Both the position numbers and the translations under genes were made by a program. Below the pieces are notes generated by a model. It worked only from the letters and a program-made list of their open reading frames with translations. It made no database searches and was not told the DNA's origin. Shown piece after piece: positions 1,906 to 58,088 of a DNA stretch of 64,000 nucleotides. The DNA is from an uncultured Bacillota bacterium. Its GTDB lineage: Bacteria > Sysuimicrobiota > Sysuimicrobiia > Sysuimicrobiales > Segetimicrobiaceae. Location of the stretch: positions 439,457 to 503,456 of the forward strand of contig CAWDRG010000015.1 of assembly GCA_963804645.1 (NCBI GenBank), in the 5' to 3' direction. Within the stretch, counting starts at the first letter, position 1; each line of letters begins with the position of its first letter.

Positions 1906-1981
1906 GGGGACGTAGCTCAGCTGGGAGAGCGCCTGAATCGCACTCAGGAGGTCGGCGGTTCAAATCCGCTCGTCTCCACCA
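1906..1981 (+). tRNA. tRNA-Ala (anticodon CGC)
   Basis: 76-nt cloverleaf: GGGGACG/CGTCTCC acceptor stem with the G3:U70 Ala determinant, anticodon loop ATCGCAC, T-loop TTCAAAT, encoded CCA. Confidence 0.97.
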
Positions 1982-3070
1982 TCGAAAAGAATTCGAACCA
2001 CCGTCCCGGTTTGTCACTTCCTCGGGGGTTTCCAGGAGCGTCAGGGTATTGAGTGACGTGGTGGCTCGGTAGTAGGGGGCGGCCGATCCGGCCTCTCGTC
2101 GGCTCAAGGCGTAACGGACCGAGCAGGGTCCTGAGGATCGGTCCGGAGCGGCCGGGGGTTCGCTCGAGGATCTCTTTGAATTGACCGAGGCGCTCCTCGA
2201 GCCATTCCAGCGGTGGCGCTTGGAAGACTTTGTCCCGACTGCGGCGCAATCCGTGAAGCTCGTCGTTGAGCGAGGTCACTTTGCGTTCGGTGTCTTCCAG
2301 GGCCTGCGCGACGCTGCGGCTGCCGCGGCCCTCGCCGATGAAATCGAGAAAGTTCGCCAGCCGCCGTTCTTCGGCGATGGAGTTCGGTCTCCTTCAGCCG
2401 GATGGCGTCCGGGACATGCGCATACAGTTTGGCGACTTCCTCCTCCACGCGCCGGAGGGTGTACTGGAGGTGTGCGGGCTTCGACAGCCGTTCGCGGACG
2501 GCCTCGAGGACGATCCGTTCCACCAAGGTGCGGCGGACGAGCAATTTGTTGTCGCAGGCGCCCTTGGTGGCGCCAATGCACCCGTAGTACCCGCCCGCTT
2601 TCCCGCTCACCTGGCCGATGGTGGCCCCACAGAGACCGCAGACGAGCGTCCCGGAGAGCAGGTGGGTGGGGAAGAGCTGCTCGCGGCCTCCTTGGGCGGC
2701 GGAGAATCCGCGGCGTCCCTTCCCGCCCGGCCAGCTGCGTCGGACCTCGAGGCGGCGGGCGCGGACAGCGTCCCACACGTCCGCCGGCACGATGCGCAAC
2801 GTCGCGTCCTCGTGGGCGATCCATTCCGAGGCCGGCTTCGGAAAGGGACGCCGTCTGCCGGTTTTGGGATCTCGGCGCAGTTCGTGCTTGTTCCAGACCC
2901 AGTGGCCCACGTATTTCTCATTGTCGAGGAGGCGGCTCACCGTCGCCGGCGACCAGCCGTTGGCGGATGCGAATGCGGCCGGGCACGGCATCCTGATTCA
3001 GCAGGCGGACGATGCGGATGAGGGCCACGGCGAATTCGAGCACATTCCGGGCGGAGAAGCGGCGACTGCT
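1982..3070 (-). pseudogene. Large serine recombinase, 5'-truncated and frameshifted (recombinase domain, zinc ribbon and coiled coil remain; catalytic domain lost)
   Basis: RIVRLLNQDAVP...GWSPATVSRLLDNEKYVG, LRIVPADVWDAV, LLSGTLVCGLCG, YYGC...C. Pieces lie in ORFs 2918-3196, 2104-2991, 1944-2279 and 1649-2107. Confidence 0.85.
2002..2467. repeat. ~460-bp direct repeat, copy 1 (LSR 3' end); copy 2 at 13397-13856
   Basis: Near-identical sequence from cgtcccggtttgtcacttcctcggggg to ccggagggtgtactgg at both loci. Confidence 0.95.
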
Positions 3071-3093
3071 GCCGCGCCCGTTGGCACGTGCTC

Positions 3094-3357
3094 TCATGAC
3101 GGCGCAAGACGCGCGCTCGTCAAATGGGTGTGCCTGTGCTTGTTCGCGTAGTGTCGCCGACGTCCGCGTTGTCCGCTCCCAACCACCCACCGCCACAGTC
3201 TCGGGCGGCTGAGACGAACCGCACGACCCAAGCGAATAGTGATCCCCTCCGGGAAAACACCCTGAGCTACAAGCGCATACAGTCTCCGCGGCGACATGCC
3301 AAGAAGCCTTGCAGCTTGCGGGACTGTGAGGAGCAACATGTTCTCTACTGCACTCAC
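3094..3357 (-). CDS. Excisionase/AlpA-like helix-turn-helix DNA-binding protein
   Basis: LLLTVPQAARLLGMSPRRLYALVAQG...IRLGRAVRL is an HTH_17/Xis pattern; it lies directly upstream of the recombinase. Confidence 0.75.
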   Translation of the reverse strand: MSAVENMLLLTVPQAARLLGMSPRRLYALVAQGVFPEGITIRLGRAVRLSRPRLWRWVVGSGQRGRRRHYANKHRHTHLTSARLAPS

Positions 3358-3503: not shown

Positions 3504-3532
3504 ATATTACTAATAGGAGGTCAGTTTGTCAA
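3504..3532 (-). promoter_or_regulatory. Leftward sigma70 promoter for the Xis-like gene and recombinase
   Basis: Minus strand TTGACA (3532-3527), 17-bp spacer, TAATAT (3509-3504). Confidence 0.6.
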
Positions 3533-3556
3533 GAGAGTCAAGAGAGTCAAGAGAGT
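3528..3556. repeat. Tandem 9-bp repeat (GTCAAGAGA)x3
   Basis: gtcaagaga gtcaagaga gtcaagaga gt, overlapping the -35 box in the divergent intergenic region. Confidence 0.9.
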
Positions 3557-3793: not shown

Positions 3794-4066
3794 GTGCGGA
3801 CTATCAAGGCAAAATACAGGACGCACGGCGGGTTCTTCGAACCACTCGAGCCGGTGGAACTTCCCGATGAGGCTGTCGTCGATGTTGCTGTCCCCGACGC
3901 CGAAGCCGGAGAGAACATGGATGCTATCATCGTGGCCGAGCCGACCGAGGAGACGATCGAGGCCTTTCACCGCTCCGCTGGTGGCTGGAAGGACCTGCTC
4001 ACGGAGGAGTTCATCGCGGAGGTCCACAAGCGACGGGAAGTTCAGCGTCCACCGATTGACCTGTGA
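3794..4066 (+). CDS. Antitoxin, AF2212/DUF104-like
   Basis: TIKAKY..GFFEPLEPVELPD pattern and GTGA overlap with the PIN toxin. Confidence 0.75.
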   Translation: MRTIKAKYRTHGGFFEPLEPVELPDEAVVDVAVPDAEAGENMDAIIVAEPTEETIEAFHRSAGGWKDLLTEEFIAEVHKRREVQRPPIDL

Positions 4067-4473
4067 GACTGGCATACCTCGTCGACACCGATTGGGCCGT
4101 TTGGTGGATGCGCGGCCGGTCCGAAGTGATCGCGCTTCTTACCCCAAAGGAGCGCGATGGGCTCGCGATCAGCGTCGTGACCCTGGCGGAGCTTTACGAG
4201 GGGATCGAAAGCACGAGGGACCCCAGCGCGGCCCGGCCTGTGCTGGATGACTTCCTGAAGCTCGTGACGGTCATTCCTTTCTCAGAGAAAGTGGCAGCGC
4301 GTTTCGGGGTAGAATCGGCCAGGCTGCGACGTCTGGGGCAACCTCTTCCTGACTTCGATCTTGTCATTGCGGTGACGGCCATGCAGCACGCGCTTACCCT
4401 GCTGACAGAGGACCGCCACTTCGAGCGGTTCCCGAACCTTGTCATTGAATCGATGTACGGGACCGGTCGTTGA
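4063..4473 (+). CDS. vapC: Type II toxin, VapC/PIN-domain ribonuclease
   Basis: YLVDTD, ISVVTLAELYEG, DFDLVIAVTA, LLTEDRHFERFP. Confidence 0.92.
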   Translation: MRLAYLVDTDWAVWWMRGRSEVIALLTPKERDGLAISVVTLAELYEGIESTRDPSAARPVLDDFLKLVTVIPFSEKVAARFGVESARLRRLGQPLPDFDLVIAVTAMQHALTLLTEDRHFERFPNLVIESMYGTGR

Positions 4474-7197: not shown

Positions 7198-7700
7198 TCA
7201 GTCCAGCCTGTATTCCCAGTAGGGACGCCAGTGGAACGGTGTTTGGATTACTTCGGGGAGCGCCTTTCCTTCGAGCAGGACCTGAAGGCTCCACTTCGTC
7301 GCGCGGTGGCCAATGATCAACGGCCGGCACGTGGAACCACTGTCTTTGATCTCCCGCAGGAACGCCTCCACCATGGCCACCCGCTGCTGGTAGCTTTCGC
7401 CGTTCGGGAATGGCACCACGATGTGCCTAATTCGAAGCGGCTCAATATCGTCAACCCTCATGCCGGCGCAATCGCCATAGTGGAAGCAGCTGGTGGAGGC
7501 CTCCGGGAAAACCCAGAAGGTCATCGCCAAGACGGCCCAAGTGCCGGAGCCGAATCTCACCAAGATAAGCGTGGGGAGATAGTACCGACTCTCGACACGA
7601 TTGCGCGCTTGACGCGAGCGGCACTTGGGGCCGGTTTGGAGGTTCGCGTTGTGCGGCCGAGATCCCCAAGGAGGAAGGTCGGTAAGGTTGACCCGATTGT
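7198..7700 (-). pseudogene. Histidine phosphatase (phosphoglycerate-mutase-like) remnant
   Basis: HYGDCAG..PFPNGESYQQ...LIIGHRATKWSL...WRPYWEY is a C-terminal half; the N-terminus is degraded. Confidence 0.6.
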
Positions 7701-7938
7701 GCTGAACGCGTAGCCACGGAAGATACCCATCCGTCCCGTGCCGCTGCTGGCCACCCAGGAGAGTGTGGTGGGAGGAGTTGGGCGGTCGGAGGAGTGCATC
7801 GCCTAAGATCCGGAGACACCTCCGTATCGGCGGTCTCCTGGAATTAGACAAATGGTATGCGGCGAATTATACTGTTTGTGTGCACAATTTTAGAACGATG
7901 ATATGCGCTAACCTATCCAAAATATATGCAGGAGTTTC

Positions 7939-8250
7939 ATGGTGACTAAATCGAGGGGTACACGGCTTCCTTCCTCGCAGAGCCCCCGCGAAGTCGGCGT
8001 GTCCTGGTGGCGGCGTAGTGCTGAGAACCAGCGTTACGTCGTAGCATCCAGTGAACAGCCCGGTGGTGCAGCGAGTCGGTTTCTCCGTCAAGAAGGATAT
8101 GTGGTTGAGGTTGCTGGCGGCAAGGTGTGGATCCTAAAGACGCCCGATCGGGACGACGTTCGAGAGCTGTGTCTCGCTAACTACTGGTCCATCGTTCGGC
8201 TGATACTAGAGCAATACGTGCCGGCGATCGTCAACCGCTGCCAGTACGTC
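7939..8250 (+). pseudogene. Truncated hypothetical protein (N-terminus only; possibly the N-terminal region of a Fic/AbiEi-like protein)
   Basis: GGAG RBS and ATG; protein-like sequence to about ...LANYWSIVRLILEQYVPAIV, then an abrupt junction with the GH39 region. Confidence 0.35.
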
Positions 8251-8285
8251 CTCAACGGGCGCAGATCCAAGCACCGAGATGAGAA

Positions 8286-9768
8286 TTGCGCCACCCGCGG
8301 CGTGACGTGTTGATCGCGGGGAAGAAGGACAAACTGCCTCACTTCACGTGCAGTCTTTCGCAACAGCCGACGTCATTTGTGCACTTTTGGGAGCACACCG
8401 TTGGGAGTGGACATGCCCCGCTCGCGTTGCGCGCTGATTGGCAACGGCAACTGCTCCGCTGCCACACCGAATTGGGATTTCGTTACGTGCGCTTTCACGC
8501 GCTTCTGTCGGACGAAATGGGCACCCTCGTCGATGAAAACAATACATTGCTCCATTCCTTTTTTAATGCCGATCAGATCATGGATTTCCTCGTCTCAATC
8601 GGGATGCGTCCATTTGTCGAGCTGAGTTTCATGCCCGAGACGCTCGCGTCCGGATCGACAAAGGTATTCAGTTATCAGGCGAACGTCACGCCGCCAAAGA
8701 ATTACCGGCAATGGTCAGCGTTGATCCACAAGCTGGTTGCGCACTGGGTCGACCGCTTCGGGATCGACGAAGTGCGTGAGTGGTTCTTTGAAGTGTGGAA
8801 CGAGCCGAACCTGAAAGCGTTCTGGACGGGCACGCAGCAAGAGTATTTCAAGCTCTACAAGGTCACGGCTGAGGCGATCAAAGGGATCGACGCACTGCTC
8901 CAAGTGGGCGGCCCAGCTACGGCGAACAACGCGTGGATCCCGGAGCTGTTGGATTTCTGCCAGCAGCATCGTCTGCCCATCGATTTCATCAGTACCCACC
9001 ATTATCCGACTGACGCGTTTGGGGAGATTGGGGCGAACACTACCACGCAACTGCAACATGCCCCGCCGAGCATCCTGCGTGATGATGCGCGGCACGTTCG
9101 CGATCAAAGCCGAGGCCTACCGGTGTATTACACGGAGTGGAATATCTCATCAAATCCCCGCGATCCGTTTCACGACGAACCCTTCGCTGCCGCCTACGTC
9201 ACGAAAATCATCATGCAGGCAACGGGCCTGGTGCGCGGCTACAGTTTTTGGACCTTCAGCGATATTTTCAGCGAGAACTATTTTCCGTCCGTTCCCTTTC
9301 ATGGCGGCTTCGGACTGCTGAACATTCACGGGATTGCCAAACCCACGTATCGAGCCTTCCAAATCTTGCACGCGTCTGGGCACGGATTTGCTCGCGGTAG
9401 AGGGCAGTTGCGGGACAGTCGACGCGTGGGCGGTTCGCAAAGCGCATGCGGTCGCCATCCTGCTCACGAACCACGCGATGCCGCGCCACTCAATTCATAC
9501 GCAGGAGGTCAGCGTTCGTGTCACCAGCGCGCAGAAGCCACGCTTGTGTTATGTGGAGAGAATCGACGACGACCACGCGAATCCGCGCCGTCACTGGGAG
9601 GCCATGGGCAAGCCCACTTACTTGAGTGCAAAACAATTGGATGAGTTGCAGCACGCGTCATTGGTCCGCAAAGATCCGCAATCCTGGAGATACAGTCATC
9701 AAAGTGTCGATCTCAAAATCACCCTGCCGCCTCACAGTGTTGCGGCGGTCACGATGGAATTTGCCTAA
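8286..9768 (+). CDS. GH39 beta-xylosidase, frameshift near 9375
   Basis: VGSGHAPLALR, GFRYVRFH, FEVWNEPN (acid/base), VGGPATA, YYTEWN (nucleophile), FHGGFGLL. The C-terminus is in ORF 9334-9768. Confidence 0.9.
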
Positions 9769-10091
9769 GCGCGGGACGTACCGATGCGACAACGGCTCTG
9801 CTCCGGCTCACGCATGTCATCTGAATTGCCAGCAGGGTTAATCGGGATCCAACAAGAAATATTCGCCAACTGATCTCGCTGCGGCGAGATTCTGTACTCG
9901 TGTTGAGGGTTTTGGCGCCGGCGTGAATCGACATGGACAGCCCAGAGCCTTATTCTTCGAGCAGTAGACATGCGTGAAATCACTTCATCACTCACTATGC
10001 ATTGGTCCCGCCGACCTGACCGAGAGCGTATGGTGATCATCGAGGTCGAGCCGCCGCCGCAAAAAACCGTAAGTACCGATTTGGCGCTGCC

Positions 10092-11432
10092 ATGAAAGTG
10101 CCCGTTCCCAACCCCCCGTTGCCGGTTCTTGATCCTCAGGGGACCGATGCAGAGATGCTTGGGAGTTTGCAGCGCGCGACATTCGAATATTTTCTGAACG
10201 AAGTCAATCCGCAAACCGGGTTGATCGCAGATAAGACGCAACCGGGAGCACCTTCCAGCATCGCGGCGGTGGGCTTGGGCATCGGCGCCTATGTGGTCGG
10301 GGTTGAACGGGCATTCCTTTCACGCGCCGACGCGATCGAACGGATCCTAGCAATTTTTCGGTTCTTTGACTCCAGTCGCCAGGGACCAGAAGCCGATGCC
10401 ACGGGATACAAGGGATTCTATTACCACTTCCTCGATATGCAGACCGGCCGACGGGCCTGGCACAGTGAATTGTCAACGATTGATACCGCGATCTTAATGG
10501 CCGGAGTGCTCACCGCCCGAAGCTACTTTACCGGTGACAGCAAAGAAGAAACCGAGATTCGTGAACTTGCCGATCGTCTCTATCGCCGCGTTGACTGGAA
10601 CTGGGCGTTGGATAACGGGACGACTATTTGCCACGGGTGGAAGCCGGAGTCAGGTTTTCTCGCGTATCGATGGGATCGCGGCTATAGTGAGGCGCTAATT
10701 CTTTACACACTTGCGATCGGCTCGCCCACGTTTTCTGTCGATCCAGCAAGCTACCGAGCATGGACGTCTACGTTTGAATGGCGGAAGATCTACGGCGTCG
10801 AACAGCTCTACGCCGGACCCCTGTTTATTCATCAGATGTCCCATCTGTGGCTGGACTTTCGCGGCATCCATGACGATTTTAATCGAAAAACCGGAATTGA
10901 TTATTTCGAAAACAGCCGACGGGCCACATACGTGCAACGACAATATGGCATAGAAAACCCACTGGGTTTTGTCCACTACAGCAGAAATGCCTGGGGACTG
11001 ACCGCGAGCGATGGACCGGGCCCGGCGGTCCGGAAGATCCATGGGGTGCAACGAACATTCTATGACTACATCGCACGAGGCGCTCCGTTTGGCCCGGATG
11101 ATGGCACCATTTCACCATGGGCGGTTGTGGCATCTCTCCCGTTCGCACCTGAGATTGTGATCGACACGATTCGTCACGCGATCGAACGCCTCAATTTAAG
11201 AGACCCTCGGTTATATGGGTTTGATGCGAGCTATAATCCGACGTATCCGGAACGAGGCAGAAATCCGTACGGTTGGGTGTCGCCGTGGAGATTTGGCTTG
11301 AACCAAGGTCCGATTGTCCTCATGATCGAGAATTTTTACTCGGAGTGCATTTGGAAGATCATCCGGGAATGTCCGTACATCGTGGATGGCTTACGTCGCG
11401 CTGGCTTTCGCGACGGTTGGCTTGACAGTTAA
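10092..11432 (+). CDS. Glucoamylase-like family protein (DUF3131 / GH144 beta-1,2-glucanase-like)
   Basis: PSSIAAVGLG, GFYYHFLD, ELSTIDTA, HGWKPESGF, GPLFIHQMSH, DYFENSRRAT, WGLTASDGP, GLNQGPIVLMIEN. Confidence 0.88.
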   Translation: MKVPVPNPPLPVLDPQGTDAEMLGSLQRATFEYFLNEVNPQTGLIADKTQPGAPSSIAAVGLGIGAYVVGVERAFLSRADAIERILAIFRFFDSSRQGPEADATGYKGFYYHFLDMQTGRRAWHSELSTIDTAILMAGVLTARSYFTGDSKEETEIRELADRLYRRVDWNWALDNGTTICHGWKPESGFLAYRWDRGYSEALILYTLAIGSPTFSVDPASYRAWTSTFEWRKIYGVEQLYAGPLFIHQMSHLWLDFRGIHDDFNRKTGIDYFENSRRATYVQRQYGIENPLGFVHYSRNAWGLTASDGPGPAVRKIHGVQRTFYDYIARGAPFGPDDGTISPWAVVASLPFAPEIVIDTIRHAIERLNLRDPRLYGFDASYNPTYPERGRNPYGWVSPWRFGLNQGPIVLMIENFYSECIWKIIRECPYIVDGLRRAGFRDGWLDS

Positions 11433-13169: not shown

Positions 13170-13396
13170 CTGTGATTGAAGTCAAGTCGAAACGAGTGTT
13201 CGTCGTCGACTCATCGCGCCCTCCATTCCCCATGGTTGTTCAGGCGGGAGCGAGTGAGTGGTGAGGACACGTCTTCCCTTCGCGCGACTCGGGGATTGCG
13301 AGTTCCGCGCGGATGAACACCCGTGCGTATCCTCGTCGTGGACCTCTTCGGGGGCTGCGCTCAAACTGACAAGGTTGTCGGCGCACACCGCGAGCG

Positions 13397-13856
13397 CGTC
13401 CCGGTTTGTCACTTCCTCGGGGGTTTCCAGGAGCATCAGGGTATTGAGTGACGTGGTGGCTCGGTAGTAGGGGCGGCCGATCCGGCCTCTCGTAGGCTCA
13501 AGGCGTAACGGACCGAGGGTTCCTGAGGATCGGTCCGGACCGGCCGAGGTTTCGCTCGAGAATCTCTTTGAATTGACCGAGGCGTTGCTCGAGCCATTCC
13601 ACCGGTCGCGCTTGGAAGACTTTGTCCCGACTGTGGCGCAATCCGTGAAGGGTCGTTGAGCGAGGTCACTTTGCGTTCGGTGTCTTCCAGGGCCTGCGCG
13701 ACGCTGCGGCTGCCGCGGCCCTCGCCGATGAAATCGATAAAGTTCGCCAGCCGCCGTTCTTCGGCGTGGAGTTCGGTCTCCTTCAGCCGGATGGCGTCCG
13801 GGACATGCGCATACAGTTTGGCGACTTCCTCCTCAACACGCCGGAGGGTGTACTGG
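13397..13856 (-). pseudogene. Second copy of the LSR 3' fragment (direct repeat copy 2)
   Basis: QYTLRRVEEEVAKLYAHVPDAIRLKETELHAEERRLANFIDFIGEGRGS matches the copy at 2002-2467. Confidence 0.9.
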
Positions 13857-13926: not shown

Positions 13927-14981
13927 TTGGATGAATACATCGTGGGCCTCGGTGAGTCGTGCTCTGATTCCAGCAGCGGAATAGCATGGGGAACCTCACG
14001 CCCTCCGCTCGCCTCGGTCATCGTCGCAACGTACAATCGCGCGAAGGAACTTGGTGTGACGCTGGAAACGCTGCTCACACAAGAGACCGACTTCCCATAC
14101 GAAGTCATCGTTGTGGACAACAATTCGTCCGATGACACCAAGGCGCTGACCACTGGCCTGGAGCAGAGAGACGGGCGTGTCCACTATCTCTTTGCCCCAC
14201 GCCGGGACTGTCCAACGCTCGGAACGCCGGTGTCTCGGCCGCGCGTGGGGAGATACTTGTCTTTGCGGACGACGACATCACGGCCCCTCCTCATTGGCTC
14301 GCGGGGATCGTAGCGACGTACCGGAATCTTGATGACGCGTGGTGCGTCGGCGGAAAGATCGTGCTGGCGCTGCCAGAACGAGGACTTCCGGATTGGTTCG
14401 ATTCTCGATTAGGATGGGTTCTGTCGGGGCTTGACCTCGGTGACAAGGTGGTAAAGCGTCAGTATCCCAACGATGTCTGGGGAGCCAACTTTTCAGTGAA
14501 ACGCGACGCTTTGCGTAGGGTGGGCCTGTTCAACCCTAACCTCGGTTCCCGGGGGGAGCGGAAGATGGCCGCTGAGGAGACTGAATTAGTGTGGCGGATT
14601 CAGAGAGCAGGAGGCTCGGTCTACTATTGCGCCGATGCGGTGGTCATGCATCGGGTACCCAGTTCACGGTTCACGAAGAGATTCTTCCGGCGCACAGTTT
14701 ACTGGCGAGGCAGGGCGTATGGACTGCTGCGGTTCAACGACGCCCAGTACACTTGGCGCAGGTTGGTCGCTAGAGTGGCACTAGTCGTAAAGACTTGGAT
14801 CAGGTCGCGACTTCTCCTTGCTCGGGTGGACGACACACTTGCCTTTCACGAAGAACTTTTGCTGTGGTGGAACATCGGCCATGTTCATCAGCGCTTGTTA
14901 CGAGAACGATTGGGTCAAGCACCGGTCCTAAAAGAGGTACCCACCGCACCGGGAAGCGTCCAGCCTGGGGCAGCGATCTGA
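13927..14981 (+). CDS. GT2 glycosyltransferase, frameshift near 14200
   Basis: SVIVATYNR, EVIVVDNNSSDDT, FADDD, VGGKI, WGANFSVKRD. Confidence 0.85.
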
Positions 14982-17627: not shown

Positions 17628-19696
17628 GTGTCCAGAGGGCACGCGCGATGGAAGGAGGTGGTGTCGGGAGGATTGAGCGCGTAGCCCGTAAGCTCGTCAC
17701 CGCCAGCGGGTGAAAGTCCCGTCCAGGTAATCGCCAGGGAGCCTGGTAGCAGGCTCCCTGGCGGCGTCAGGGGGAAACGCTTGACGCCGAAGCCCAGCGT
17801 CGGAAGCCTCACGGAGGTAGCAACCGAGCGGTCCGCAGCATGACGTGAAGTCTGCCGCGGCGTTAGACCAGCCCGAAAGGGACCAAGGGGGAGCCGAGCC
17901 CGGAATACCAGGGCGAAGGCCACGGAAGGCGTGGAGAGCCTGGAAATGCAGCGCCGAAGAACCCCCCGCCGTAAGGGGCGCGGAACGTTCGGACGGTGGT
18001 GACGGGAACTGGAGAGGCCCTCCCCGGCCCCGGGTCTGCGATCCGGGAGCAGCCAGTGCGTATAACCGCCAAACGGGAAGTCGCACTGAGCCGGGAGGGC
18101 GTCGGATGGGGCCATATTAGCGACGACCGGCGGGACAACATAACCCGCCCGAGCGAAGGGCCCCTGCTTCGTCCACGTTTGTGGGAGAGGGAGGAACTGG
18201 TGCATGGCCGTGAGGCCCAACAACACCCTCGATAAAGTTCGAGCCCTTCAACACAAACTGTACCGGACGGCCAAGCAGTCGCCGAATCGACGTTTCCACG
18301 CGCTGTATGACCGGGTCCATCGCAGGGACGTTCTCCGGCGCGCGTGGTTGGAGGTGCGCGCCAACCAGGGAGCACCGGGAATCGACGCCATCACCATCGC
18401 GGATATTGAGGCGGCCGGCGTAGAGGTGTTCCTTGACGACCTAGAGGCCAGCCTGCGCGACGGGACGTACCGTCCGCAGCCGCTGCGGCGCGTCTGGATT
18501 CCCAAACCGGGCAAGCCGGACAAGCTGCGTCCGCTTGGGATCGCGAACGTGCGGGACCGGGTGGTCCAGCAAGCGCTGAAGATCGTCATCGAACCGATCT
18601 TCGAGGCGGACTTTCTGCCCTGCTCGTACGGGTTTCGGCCCCGGCGAGACGCCCATCAAGCATTGCAAGCAATGCGGGAGGCAATTCGGGCAGGAAGGAC
18701 ATGGGTGGTGGATGCCGACATCGAGAGTTGCTTCGATCGACTTGCGCATGGCCGCATCCTGGAGTGTCTCCGGGAGCGGATCAGCGACCGGAAGGTCGTG
18801 GAGCTCATTCGGTGCATCCTGTCCGCCGGGATACTCGACAGCGGTACGCTGACGACCCCGACGGAGGGCTCTCCACAAGGTGGGCCGCTCTCGCCAGTCC
18901 TGGCTAACGTGGTCCTGCATCATTTGGACCGAGCCTGGATGACGGAGCACCAGCCGTTGGGAGTGCTCGTTCGCTACTGTGACGATCTTTGCATCTGCTG
19001 CTCAACTCGGGAGAAGGCTGAAGCCGCGAAGGCGGTTTTGGCAACAACCCTGGAAGAGCTGGGGCTGACATTGTCCGGCCCCAAGACGCAGATCGTTGGA
19101 GTCGCAAGCGGGAGCGCGGGATATGACTTTCTGGGTTTCCATCATCAGATGGTGCCCTCGCGGCGTAGACCGAGCTTTCGCTATCCGGCGTGCTGGCCGA
19201 GTGCCAAAGCCGTGCTCCGGTGCCGTTCTCGGATTCGGGAACTCACCGGGCGCAATCGTCGCCACGTCCCCACGCACACGGTTGTGGGCGACCTCAATCG
19301 TTTTCTCGGGGGATGGCGCGAGTACTATCGGTATGGCAACTCGACTCGTTGCTTCGCCAAGTTGGACCGGTATACGGTCGAACGAATGGCGTTGCTGCTC
19401 TCCAAACGACATGGACGGAACGGGCGGGGACGCGGCATGAAGTACATCATCATGTCCGGCAACCGCCTCAGTTTGCTCCGGTTGGTCGGAAGCGTTCGAT
19501 TCGAGCGGGGCGAAAACCGTCGGTGAAGGACGTCGGTGAGCCGAGTGACCGGAAAGGTCATGCTCGGATCGATGAGGAGGGGTTGGAAACGTGTGTCGCC
19601 CGGGACGAGGGCTGGAGGCTGCAAGCCACCGATGGAGGTGGACAGGCTGTACCCCTAATCGGCAGGGCGGCGCGGCGCGCCAACTCCTTACTCTAC
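17628..19696 (+). mobile_element. Group II intron (ribozyme plus RT/maturase ORF)
   Basis: 5' GTGTCC (boundary approximate). Domain V GAGCCGAGTGACCGGAAAGGTCATGCTCGGATC at 19538-19570. Domain VI closes with ...CCAACTCCTTACTCTAC, ending at 19696. Confidence 0.88.
18204..19526 (+). CDS. ltrA: Group II intron reverse transcriptase/maturase (no endonuclease domain)
   Basis: GAPGID, RRVWIPKPG, RPLGI..RDRVVQ, SYGFRP, DADIESCFD, GSPQGGPLSP, RYCDD, FLGF, domain X GWREYY. Confidence 0.95.
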   Translation: MAVRPNNTLDKVRALQHKLYRTAKQSPNRRFHALYDRVHRRDVLRRAWLEVRANQGAPGIDAITIADIEAAGVEVFLDDLEASLRDGTYRPQPLRRVWIPKPGKPDKLRPLGIANVRDRVVQQALKIVIEPIFEADFLPCSYGFRPRRDAHQALQAMREAIRAGRTWVVDADIESCFDRLAHGRILECLRERISDRKVVELIRCILSAGILDSGTLTTPTEGSPQGGPLSPVLANVVLHHLDRAWMTEHQPLGVLVRYCDDLCICCSTREKAEAAKAVLATTLEELGLTLSGPKTQIVGVASGSAGYDFLGFHHQMVPSRRRPSFRYPACWPSAKAVLRCRSRIRELTGRNRRHVPTHTVVGDLNRFLGGWREYYRYGNSTRCFAKLDRYTVERMALLLSKRHGRNGRGRGMKYIIMSGNRLSLLRLVGSVRFERGENRR

Positions 19697-57026: not shown

Positions 57027-58088
57027 ATGTGTGTTGCAAAGAGCGTTGATCCCGCGGTGGCGCCGCCGAAGGGGTCGACCGCCGTCTTGGAGGAGATGAC
57101 GCCATCAGGTGTTGCGTGCTCTATCATCGTGTCGACGCGCAACCGGGCAAGTGATCTGGCACGCCTTCTTCCGCTGCTGATGGGTCAGGAGACGGATAAG
57201 CCGTATGAGGTGATCGTCGTCGACAACGAGTCGAGCGACGCGACCCGCGTGGTCGTGGACCCTTTCCTGGCGCACCCGGCATTCCGGTACATCGTTGAAT
57301 CGAGGATCGGGGCGAGCCACGTACGCAACCGCGGCATCGTCGAATCCCGCGGAGAGATCCTGCTCTTTGCCGACGACGATATTATCGTCGATCGTAACTG
57401 GATGCAAAGATTGACGCAAGTCTACCGCGATCATCCAGATGCGTGGGCGGTCGGCGGTAAGATAGTCTTGGAGTACGCCGCGCCGCTACCGCAATGGTAC
57501 TTCGATGTTGGGGCGCCGTATTGGTATGTAGGACCGCACCTTGACTATGGTGACGACACAATCCTCTTGGGTCCCGGGACCGAGCTGTGGACTGCCAACC
57601 TGTCCATACGTCGTGACACTATCTCGCGGATCGGGGGTTTTCGGACCGATCTCGGGCCCAAGGGAAAACGGCGGCTTCTCGGAGAGGATAGTGAGTTTTG
57701 TCATCGCGTGCATTCGCACGGCGGCCGTCTGTACTACTGCGGAACAGCTGTCGTGCGTCATCCCATTCCGCCAGCGCGCTACACCGCCCGAGCCATACGG
57801 CGCAGCGCGTATTGGACAGGGCGCACGAACTCATATTTTTTCCCTCCCGAACACGTAGCTGTTCCCGTGATGCGCAGCATCATCAGAGGAGCGGCGAACT
57901 ACGGCCTAGGCCGAAACGTGGTGGGTCTCCGCTACGAGTTAGCGCTTCGACTGTATCTCGGATATTGGCACGAGAGAGCGTTGGTTCGAATGGGGTTGCG
58001 GCGTGCGGAGGATCCTGTGCGGGCGCTCGACATCGCCTATGCGGGTAAAGTCGCTGGTTCTGATACAACCGCCAAACGTCATACGTAA
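57027..58088 (+). CDS. GT2 glycosyltransferase
   Basis: SIIVSTRNR, VVDNESSD, RNRG, FADDD, VGGKI, GEDSEF. Confidence 0.9.
   Translation: MCVAKSVDPAVAPPKGSTAVLEEMTPSGVACSIIVSTRNRASDLARLLPLLMGQETDKPYEVIVVDNESSDATRVVVDPFLAHPAFRYIVESRIGASHVRNRGIVESRGEILLFADDDIIVDRNWMQRLTQVYRDHPDAWAVGGKIVLEYAAPLPQWYFDVGAPYWYVGPHLDYGDDTILLGPGTELWTANLSIRRDTISRIGGFRTDLGPKGKRRLLGEDSEFCHRVHSHGGRLYYCGTAVVRHPIPPARYTARAIRRSAYWTGRTNSYFFPPEHVAVPVMRSIIRGAANYGLGRNVVGLRYELALRLYLGYWHERALVRMGLRRAEDPVRALDIAYAGKVAGSDTTAKRHT

Follow-up and report, generated by a model that had tools for sequence, protein, structure and literature searches.

According to the Islander paper, a standard work on genomic islands, tRNA and transfer-messenger RNA (tmRNA) genes are not known to serve as targets of serine integrases (PMC4383910). 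The only clear exception that we found in the literature is provided by the ssrA islands of Dehalococcoides. These are described as carrying DsiB, a serine recombinase encoded by a gene that overlaps the left island junction, attL (McMurdie et al. 2011, PMC3146451). Here we analyse a 64,000-nt stretch of DNA from an uncultured bacterium (the window, meaning the whole stretch), in which the 3' end of a tRNA-Ala(CGC) gene adjoins the remnant of a large serine recombinase (LSR) gene. We found that window positions 1957–1999 are very probably an attL, to judge from the likeness to related junctions: the left end of a decayed element that an LSR inserted at the 3' end of this tRNA gene. The window element is dead and belongs to a widespread family, which the literature describes only in part. 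Comparison of their junctions indicates that LSRs of this family apparently recognise the T-loop of the tRNA as a docking site. What is new here is that the C-terminal tail of the LSR that is antisense to the tRNA is incidental, and that a helix-turn-helix (HTH) exon of the LSR is displaced by integration.

The family shares several properties with DsiB. The LSR stands at a tmRNA 3' end (38 of 58 abutting genes are tmRNA genes) and its gene overlaps attL; the DsiB stop codon is reported to lie outside the island, and tandem arrays are described there too (PMC3146451). The DsiB authors suggest that a complete gene may exist only where the element is circular or has another island next to it (PMC3146451). 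The differences, as far as the two can be compared by the published description, are also several. DsiB islands have a 20-bp repeat, an insertion point midway along the T-loop and a partner, the small serine recombinase DsiA, within a six-gene integration module (PMC3146451), whereas the elements studied here have attL/attR common blocks of 4–10 bp, carry a MerR-like accessory gene, use tRNA genes as well, and showed no such module among 44 cargo open reading frames (ORFs). The palindromic attP, the 5-bp box shift and the displaced HTH exon reported below are not described for DsiB in the accessible part of that paper (PMC3146451).

Other described systems resemble the family in single traits. 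The LSR of the Roseburia phage Shimadzu is reported to have its integration site inside its own gene (Cornuault et al. 2019, 10.1101/575076), so that its prophage and free forms differ at the C-terminus, and a second Shimadzu copy lies in a tRNA. Shimadzu is a gut Firmicute phage, and its forms differ in about the last 20 residues, for which the accessible account names no domain. The LI integrase (A118-family, Listeria) likewise has a pseudo-palindromic attP with a non-palindromic centre, and its half-sites are given as 25-bp (PMC3783163). Its target is a protein-coding gene, whereas in our family one attB arm is a universal RNA-gene motif and the other is nearly sequence-free. Archaeal SSV-type tyrosine integrases also have attP inside the integrase frame, and insertion into a tRNA gene splits the integrase gene (PMC7253208). 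These enzymes are unrelated, and by that account the split destroys the integrase, whereas here only the C-terminal HTH domain is removed and the catalytic, recombinase and zinc-ribbon parts remain in one piece. Among solved full-length structures the best profile match was SPbeta SprA/YokA (PDB 9dxh and related), a distant one (positions 187–514, E 4.5e-8). SprA has the domain order of canonical LSRs; its target is a protein-coding gene, and its directionality factor is separate. A preprint on tycheposons counts 27 of 937 elements with an LSR and, in its accessible part, gives no site detail (10.1101/2020.12.28.424599); two Sandia resource papers do not, in their accessible parts, treat the use of tRNA or tmRNA genes by serine integrases (PMC12884075, PMC12424338). 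In the literature searched, supplements excluded, we found neither a T-loop-mimicking palindromic attP nor a displaced HTH exon described, and no account of a tRNA site with the 5-bp shift.

The junction at tRNA-Ala(CGC)

The sole gene that ARAGORN found in the window is tRNA-Ala(cgc) (Table 1). The original prediction drew attention to an inverted likeness between its T arm and the sequence just downstream, and direct comparison of the 15-mers bears this out: 1991–2005 and the reverse complement of 1951–1965 are identical at 12/15 positions. Considered alone, the match is only modestly unusual, as 27 of 3000 shuffles of the 60 downstream bases gave some 15-mer with at least 12/15 identities to the 3' half of the tRNA. 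Its weight comes from the relatives, because the box recurs at one distance from the T-loop in 54 of 57 of their junctions. The P' half-site of the window, that is, the element's side of the junction, has one difference from the 18-nt half-site of the family. The nine-base box of this P' arm is ATTCGAACC, and its counterpart in the tRNA arm is ATTTGAACC (8/9 alike). A search for repeats within 1880–2080 found none, the longest exact run being 5 bases and the smallest seed 6. A third GGTTCGAAT, at 57983, was considered as an att site and rejected; nothing P-arm-like follows it, and its occurrence is within chance expectation.

The LSR gene beside this junction is a pseudogene on the opposite strand. 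It covers residues 197–558 of a 559-residue homologue in four frame pieces (3046–2969, 2985–2377, 2375–1995 and 2077–1958), the last of which reads ..GGSNSFRWWRRADLNRRPPECDSGALPAELRPH.. and continues open through the tRNA. The open antisense frame noticed earlier is thus real, and runs without a stop from 2275 to 1652 on the minus strand. Pfam reported PF07508 (1.3e-11) and PF13408 (6.5e-9) within 2404–2997, in the order Recombinase then zinc ribbon. Residues 1–196, the catalytic domain, gave no match with tblastn, and Pfam found no PF00239 in the window LSR. Neither the window nor its contig retains an attR, P arm or HTH exon of the element. The window copy, with no catalytic domain, with frameshifts and with no attR or HTH exon on the contig, is dead and cannot act. 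A second fragment of the same LSR lies at 13395–13852; it is without a P' arm because its likeness to the first starts at 2002, two bases beyond the 24-base P' half-site. This fragment could be the relic of a tandem copy. No further copies of this LSR besides the two in the window were found in the genome.

The same genome holds a second decayed array of this element family, on contig C22 (about 131600–136400, and 151264–151614). It stands 15–20 kb beyond the genome's tmRNA gene and includes two 3' fragments of tmRNA, a P' arm and an attR-like site whose HTH exon is frameshifted. A pair of sites on C22 does not bound an intact element, since no LSR lies between the two; both belong to the decayed array, 16 kb from the tmRNA gene.

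Empty sites were looked for in relatives and in metagenomes. Among six orthologous tRNA-Ala(cgc) loci of relatives, four (G001, G003, G015 and G006) are free of the element and have unrelated sequence straight after CCA, so the counterpart of 1982–2005 is not retained in any of them, as the original prediction had it. In another (G010) the tRNA is followed by a canonical P' arm and an LSR, and the contig of the last (G019) stops at the tRNA. The 2.8-kb element of locus L010 is carried by contigs of three peat-metagenome runs, and one contig of run X2 joins L010 position 7511 to 10275, with 2763 bp skipped and 9 common letters at the joint. These 9 letters are the block common to attL and attR of the L010 element. 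The empty site is a single contig of depth 3.5; what it documents is that one habitat has the element both present and absent, and not an act of excision. Contigs of runs X1, X3 and X5 had no joint across the L010 element.

A recombinase family at tmRNA and tRNA genes

A search with the recombinase and zinc-ribbon part of the window LSR returned 430 longer homologues, 120 of them listed (62–79% identity, mostly about 570 residues). The catalytic domain is present in intact relatives: PF00239 was found for most matches, and all of 27 sequences have the motif YARYSSENQ, with S10, unchanged. Towards the C-terminus of the homologues a variable linker leads to GGSNSL, behind which stands W-W-R-R-R-E-S-N-P-R-P or a variant; in this last segment an acceptor stem and T arm of tRNA type are read antisense. 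A C-terminal GS(N/K)x..W is present in 87 of the 120 listed homologues, 73 of the 120 also have the T-arm antisense, and five have the same DNA in another frame, read as RFEFF.

A profile of the 27 sequences was run against one genome each of 185,579 species and gave 437 loci, the best 80 of which were analysed. These 80 belong to Myxococcota, Gemmatimonadota, Acidobacteriota, Actinomycetota, Arenicellales, Methylomirabilota and others, and the family spans at least eight phyla. In IMG/VR we found no close relative (8 loci, ≤32% identity). A convergent tmRNA (38) or tRNA (20) gene stands at the 3' end of the LSR in 58 of the best 80 loci (ARAGORN), in line with the expectation that homologues would abut tRNA 3' ends, and at nearly every tmRNA-abutting locus the LSR match extends over the end of that gene. 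One of the 58 (L008) has its gene 195 nt off, with a tmRNA 3' fragment adjoining directly. The abutting tRNA genes are those for Ala (ggc, five loci; cgc, one; tgc, one), Met (five), Glu (ttc, three; ctc, three), Ser (one) and Val (one). On a tree of 60 LSRs, 45 of them with a target label, a quick method gave at least seven target changes. The commonest target is tmRNA; tRNA-Ala, with an acceptor end like that of tmRNA, was acquired several times. The original prediction also suggested that such an enzyme might target many tRNAs. This holds for the family as a whole (tmRNA and tRNA-Ala, Met, Glu, Ser and Val); for a single enzyme it is a supposition.

Two LSRs from bins assigned to Spirochaetaceae and Myxococcota (L004 and L005) are nearly identical (tree branches 0.024 and 0.028), which reflects either a recent cross-phylum transfer or a binning error.

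Junction register and the palindromic attP

We anchored 57 junctions on the T-loop of the tRNA or tmRNA itself and compared them. Their layout is constant: the T-loop heptamer, 11 bases, two central bases, 16 bases and the inverted heptamer, which is GGT(T/G)CGA or a near variant in 54 of the 57. The three exceptions are L008, where the gene does not abut directly, and L034 and L042, with a 1-base indel each. Counted from the centre, the heptamer occupies positions 13–19 in the tRNA arm and 18–24 in the attP arms, constantly in the same 54 junctions; the nine-base box A(A/T)TCGAACC, read outward, occupies 11–19 in the tRNA arm and 16–24 in both attP arms. The predicted 5-bp offset is therefore exact and constant across the register tables. 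It agrees with the positions given for the LI integrase, where the zinc-ribbon motif is placed at base pairs 16–24 of attP and 11–19 of attB, a shift of 5 bp (Rutherford et al. 2013, PMC3783163). From this correspondence we infer that in attB the T-loop box is what the zinc-ribbon domain reads.

At several loci the LSR frame ends in a 48-bp near-palindrome, consisting of an 18-nt arm, 5 bases, GA, 5 bases and the inverted arm (L076, twice; L065; L022; L053; L073; L034). The arms, about 18 nt long, end in GGTTCGA, and those of the best palindrome, L076, agree by eye at 22/23 positions around GA/TC. The relatives thus have what is expected of LSR sites, a pseudo-palindromic attP of about 50 bp (here 48 bp) with a non-palindromic central dinucleotide, and a near-palindrome of this kind is also obtained when attP is rebuilt from attL and attR. 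In most loci the junction centre is GA on the LSR strand, which is the TC of tRNA ..CC[TC]CACCA and corresponds to window 1975–1976. The crossover proposed in the original prediction coincides with this centre of symmetry and lies inside TCCA, the shortest block common to the attL and attR of one element.

Right ends were recognised upstream of the LSR at 15 loci; each has the P arm, TC, CAC(C)(A) and then unrelated flank, and the elements so delimited measure 2.8 to 11.4 kb. Thirteen of the 15 attL/attR pairs have a common block of 4–10 bp around the centre, the shortest being TCCA in four (L007, L008, L064 and L077). In the other two a 1-base indel upsets the register, and L042 by eye shares only TCC. 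Because the common block can be as short as TCCA, the exchange would take place within these four bases, and symmetry then selects TC.

We think that the chromosomal palindromes are junctions of tandem insertions and not free circles, because they lie in long contigs and the adjoining LSRs are N-terminally truncated where this can be judged. The LSR beside a complete chromosomal palindrome was truncated in every judgeable case (L076; L110, from residue 100; L107/L115, from residue 220; L114, from residue 96). This suggests that complete chromosomal attP-like junctions persist only when the enzyme is dead.

Constraint on the T-loop box

The box lies within the coding frame of the LSR, where it encodes GGSNS. 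We compared codon use inside and outside the box at 48 loci, whose LSR genes have a mean third-position GC of 0.77; the loci were selected by box likeness, which favours conservation and not codon choice. GGT is used for Gly in the box at 47/48 loci, against a share of 13.6% among the other Gly codons of the gene; the corresponding figures are 36/36 versus 20% for AAT among Asn codons and 42/43 versus 8% for TTG among Leu codons. Codon use in the box departs from that of the gene, which shows that the constraint acts on the DNA: what is conserved in GGSNS is the DNA sequence and not the peptide. The attP box also seems to follow the tmRNA. In two lineages whose tmRNA T-loop is GGTGC (L064; L078/L079) the attP arms are GGTGC as well, and a GGTGC T-loop paired with a GGTTC arm was seen in 0/3. 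This covariation is only suggestive because of 11 mismatched junctions in Arenicellales, where arms with GGTGCGA face tRNA GGTTCGA, so the boxes of attP and tRNA need not be identical.

An HTH exon at the far end of the element

In 18 of 21 P-arm sites, the frame that continues the LSR across attP reads W-T-R-(T/S)-Q-R-I-R-T, followed by a conserved stretch of about 60 residues (..PP.YQ.IA.KA.HLRELG.S..AIAR.LGVSDKTVAKAI.W) and a stop. Of the other three sites, L040 is a chance match, L065 lacks the exon and L020 has it truncated. Pfam scored one exon as HTH_23 at 26.9 bits (cut-off 24.6) and the remaining exons below the cut-off. An AlphaFold model has four helices in residues 27–68 and a mean predicted local distance difference test score (pLDDT) of 83.5, with low confidence in the attP-encoded part. 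Foldseek with this model gave no match at E ≤ 0.001; its top rows were HTH domains of the ParB, LuxR and IstA types. The displaced exon is an HTH domain. The ratio of non-synonymous to synonymous substitution rates (dN/dS) had a median of 0.30 in pairwise comparisons of the exon and was below 1 in 108/108 usable pairs (of 153), so the exon is under purifying selection, though severed from its gene when the element is integrated.

Taken from the continuity of the frames, this conserved HTH exon is most probably the true C-terminus of the LSR, moved by integration to the far end of the element, at attR. The tail antisense to the tRNA would be a by-product, because integration splits the LSR gene. 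The open frame to which the original prediction pointed exists, as described above, and has no meaning of its own.

At two loci (L032 and L033, about 3100–3200) the 48-bp palindrome is cleanly deleted, leaving an in-frame LSR-HTH fusion without an att site.

A conserved ORF of about 190 residues with a MerR-like HTH at its N-terminus adjoins the LSR in five elements (Table 1), and the 2.8-kb element of L010 consists wholly of this ORF, the LSR and the HTH exon. Its product is a candidate directionality factor. The cargo is varied and includes methylases, a PLD-type nuclease, SMC-like ATPases and TonB-dependent receptors. Pfam, run on 44 cargo ORFs of nine elements, revealed no homologue of ParB or Mom and no second resolvase.

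Alternative explanations

The inverted match could be a coincidence, the island having been brought in by a tyrosine integrase with the LSR remnant as a passenger. Chance does reach 12/15 in some shuffles, tyrosine integrases are given as the rule at tRNA genes (PMC4383910), and the region to the right of the junction is a mosaic of foreign-looking genes. None of the 11 PF00589 matches of the genome falls within the window, though, and the last 17 bases of the tRNA have no second copy there at up to three mismatches. With both a tyrosine integrase and a tRNA 3'-end repeat lacking in the window, and with the same junction in register in nearly all relatives, we regard this explanation as scarcely credible. 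It is also very unlikely that the box is kept for the sake of a GGSNSL peptide at the LSR C-terminus and not as a DNA binding site. The peptide is nearly invariant among the listed homologues, as such selection would have it, but the codons fixed in the box are rare in these GC-rich genes, residue-changing substitutions preserve the DNA box (GCG for TCG, giving GGTGCGA), the linker directly before the box varies freely, and the same DNA inverted in the P arm encodes another peptide, QRIRT.

Two further possibilities accept an LSR site and alter its reading. The staggered cut might fall one or two bases further right, at CC or CA (window 1976–1978), since attL and attR share TCCA or more, which allows three dinucleotides by identity, and the empty site of L010 leaves nine ambiguous letters. 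We consider this improbable, given that the L076 arms match around GA/TC, that the L042 pair, once its register is shifted by 1 base, has by eye no more than TCC in common, and that the 5-bp rule fits TC exactly. A small but real chance remains with the view that the T-loop likeness of attP is a relic of descent, from a captured tRNA 3' end, or a box read by the HTH domain, so that the zinc ribbon would not read the same box in attB and attP. The HTH domain would exist only in the form that must find attB, and the attP and tRNA boxes differ in Arenicellales. Set against this are the box positions, 16–24 in attP and 11–19 in attB, which are those of the zinc ribbon in the published LI integrase model (PMC3783163), and the three loci of two lineages whose GGTGC T-loops have GGTGC and never GGTTC attP arms.

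Insertion by an LSR that reads the T-loop, our preferred interpretation, has to be weighed against several observations that speak against it. No complete gene abuts the LSR in 22 of the 80 loci: three end before the LSR 3' end, four contigs stop within tmRNA-like antisense, four loci adjoin T-arm-containing fragments, two acceptor-only fragments, four palindromes and five other sequence. The window element itself keeps only one junction. A zinc-ribbon box is missing from the right arm of attB, unusually for an LSR site, and in 11 junctions of Arenicellales a GGTTC T-loop goes with an arm that has GGTGC or AGTGC. Sequence places the crossover no more closely than TCCA. No circular form was seen (0 of 13 palindrome loci from metagenomes were circular), and a full-length LSR-HTH frame, intact in one piece, was not seen either.

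Proposed mechanism

We propose that attP is the 48-bp near-palindrome within the 3' end of the LSR's own frame, with the central non-palindromic TC, and that a tmRNA or tRNA gene supplies attB at its end. The left arm of attB would comprise the 3' strand of the acceptor stem and the T arm, and its right arm only C-A-C(-C-A), beyond which comes unrelated flank. Recombination of attP with attB is predicted to proceed through a 2-bp staggered cut; the one indirect sign of such recombination is the empty-site contig that lacks the 2763-bp element. Strand exchange at TC (window 1975–1976) would place the element's CACCA behind the tRNA body, and the tRNA would stay whole because this CACCA restores its 3' end. 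The 5-bp displacement of the box would correspond to the zinc-ribbon shift between attB and attP known for LI integrase. The same exchange would cut the LSR gene after the second Trp codon: in the circular form the LSR frame would run through attP into the HTH domain of about 60 residues, and in the integrated form the HTH exon would lie at attR, with the LSR gaining an arbitrary tail antisense to the tRNA.

Two extensions of this scheme can be put forward together, and that both hold is possible, if on the whole doubtful. The gene split might act as a direction switch, such that the complete LSR-HTH protein of the circle integrates and the truncated LSR of the integrated form, perhaps with the MerR-like protein, excises or is off. 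In addition, the inner bases of attP may suffice to re-aim the enzyme at any chosen tRNA gene, an idea prompted by the universal T-loop and acceptor end in one attB arm and by the target changes on the tree. The sites of the family offer a natural test of the zinc-ribbon shift model, with the universal T-loop as the attB box. An integrase that loses a whole DNA-binding domain at each integration would make the direction control of serine integrases testable in a new way, and an enzyme with a landing site in every tRNA gene would be of practical interest for genome engineering.

Other features

Coordinates of the junction, of the LSR fragments in the window and of the accessory ORFs in relatives are collected in Table 1.

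Table 1. Coordinates of features in the window and of accessory ORFs at related loci
Feature	Position	Strand	Basis or remark
tRNA-Ala(CGC), CCA encoded; probable integration target	1906–1981	+	ARAGORN; same gene at orthologous loci of relatives
B half-site of the probable attL: T-loop box GGTTCAA (1957–1963, positions 19 to 13 from the centre), then 3' strands of T stem and acceptor stem	1957–1974	+	Register table of relatives
Predicted crossover dinucleotide TC (tRNA positions 70–71)	1975–1976		Centre of attP-like palindrome; inside TCCA; inside the 9 common letters of the L010 empty site
P' half-site of the probable attL: CACCA (1977–1981) rebuilds the tRNA 3' end; inverted T-loop box TCGAACC (1993–1999) at positions 18–24	1976–1999	+	
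LSR pseudogene, catalytic domain deleted	1958–3046	-	tblastn, frame map, Pfam Recombinase and Zn_ribbon_recom
Remnant of 20 codons (GRGSSRRFSARNVLEFAVAL) from the MerR-like accessory gene; a deletion has fused it to LSR residue ~200	3020–3079	-	Alignment of five accessory ORFs, set beside the frame map
Second fragment of the same LSR, residues 391–544, three frame pieces	13395–13852	-	94% DNA identity to 2002–2300
MerR-like accessory ORF	L010:7796–8365		
MerR-like accessory ORF	L024:9193–9750		
MerR-like accessory ORF	L029:9211–9780		
MerR-like accessory ORF	L013:9187–9744		
MerR-like accessory ORF	L042:9187–9759		

Four other features of the window were recorded. At 3794–4470 a small AF2212-like ORF overlaps a PIN-domain ORF by a few bases, arranged like a toxin-antitoxin pair of the VapBC type. 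Upstream of a small zinc-ribbon ORF, an AT-rich spacer contains, by eye, three tandem copies of the 9-base unit gtcaagaga (about 3528–3556). An ORF at 18204–19523 has reverse transcriptase and group II intron maturase domains. Finally, a family-2 glycosyltransferase at 13927–14978 appears to be split over two adjacent ORFs, probably by a frameshift.

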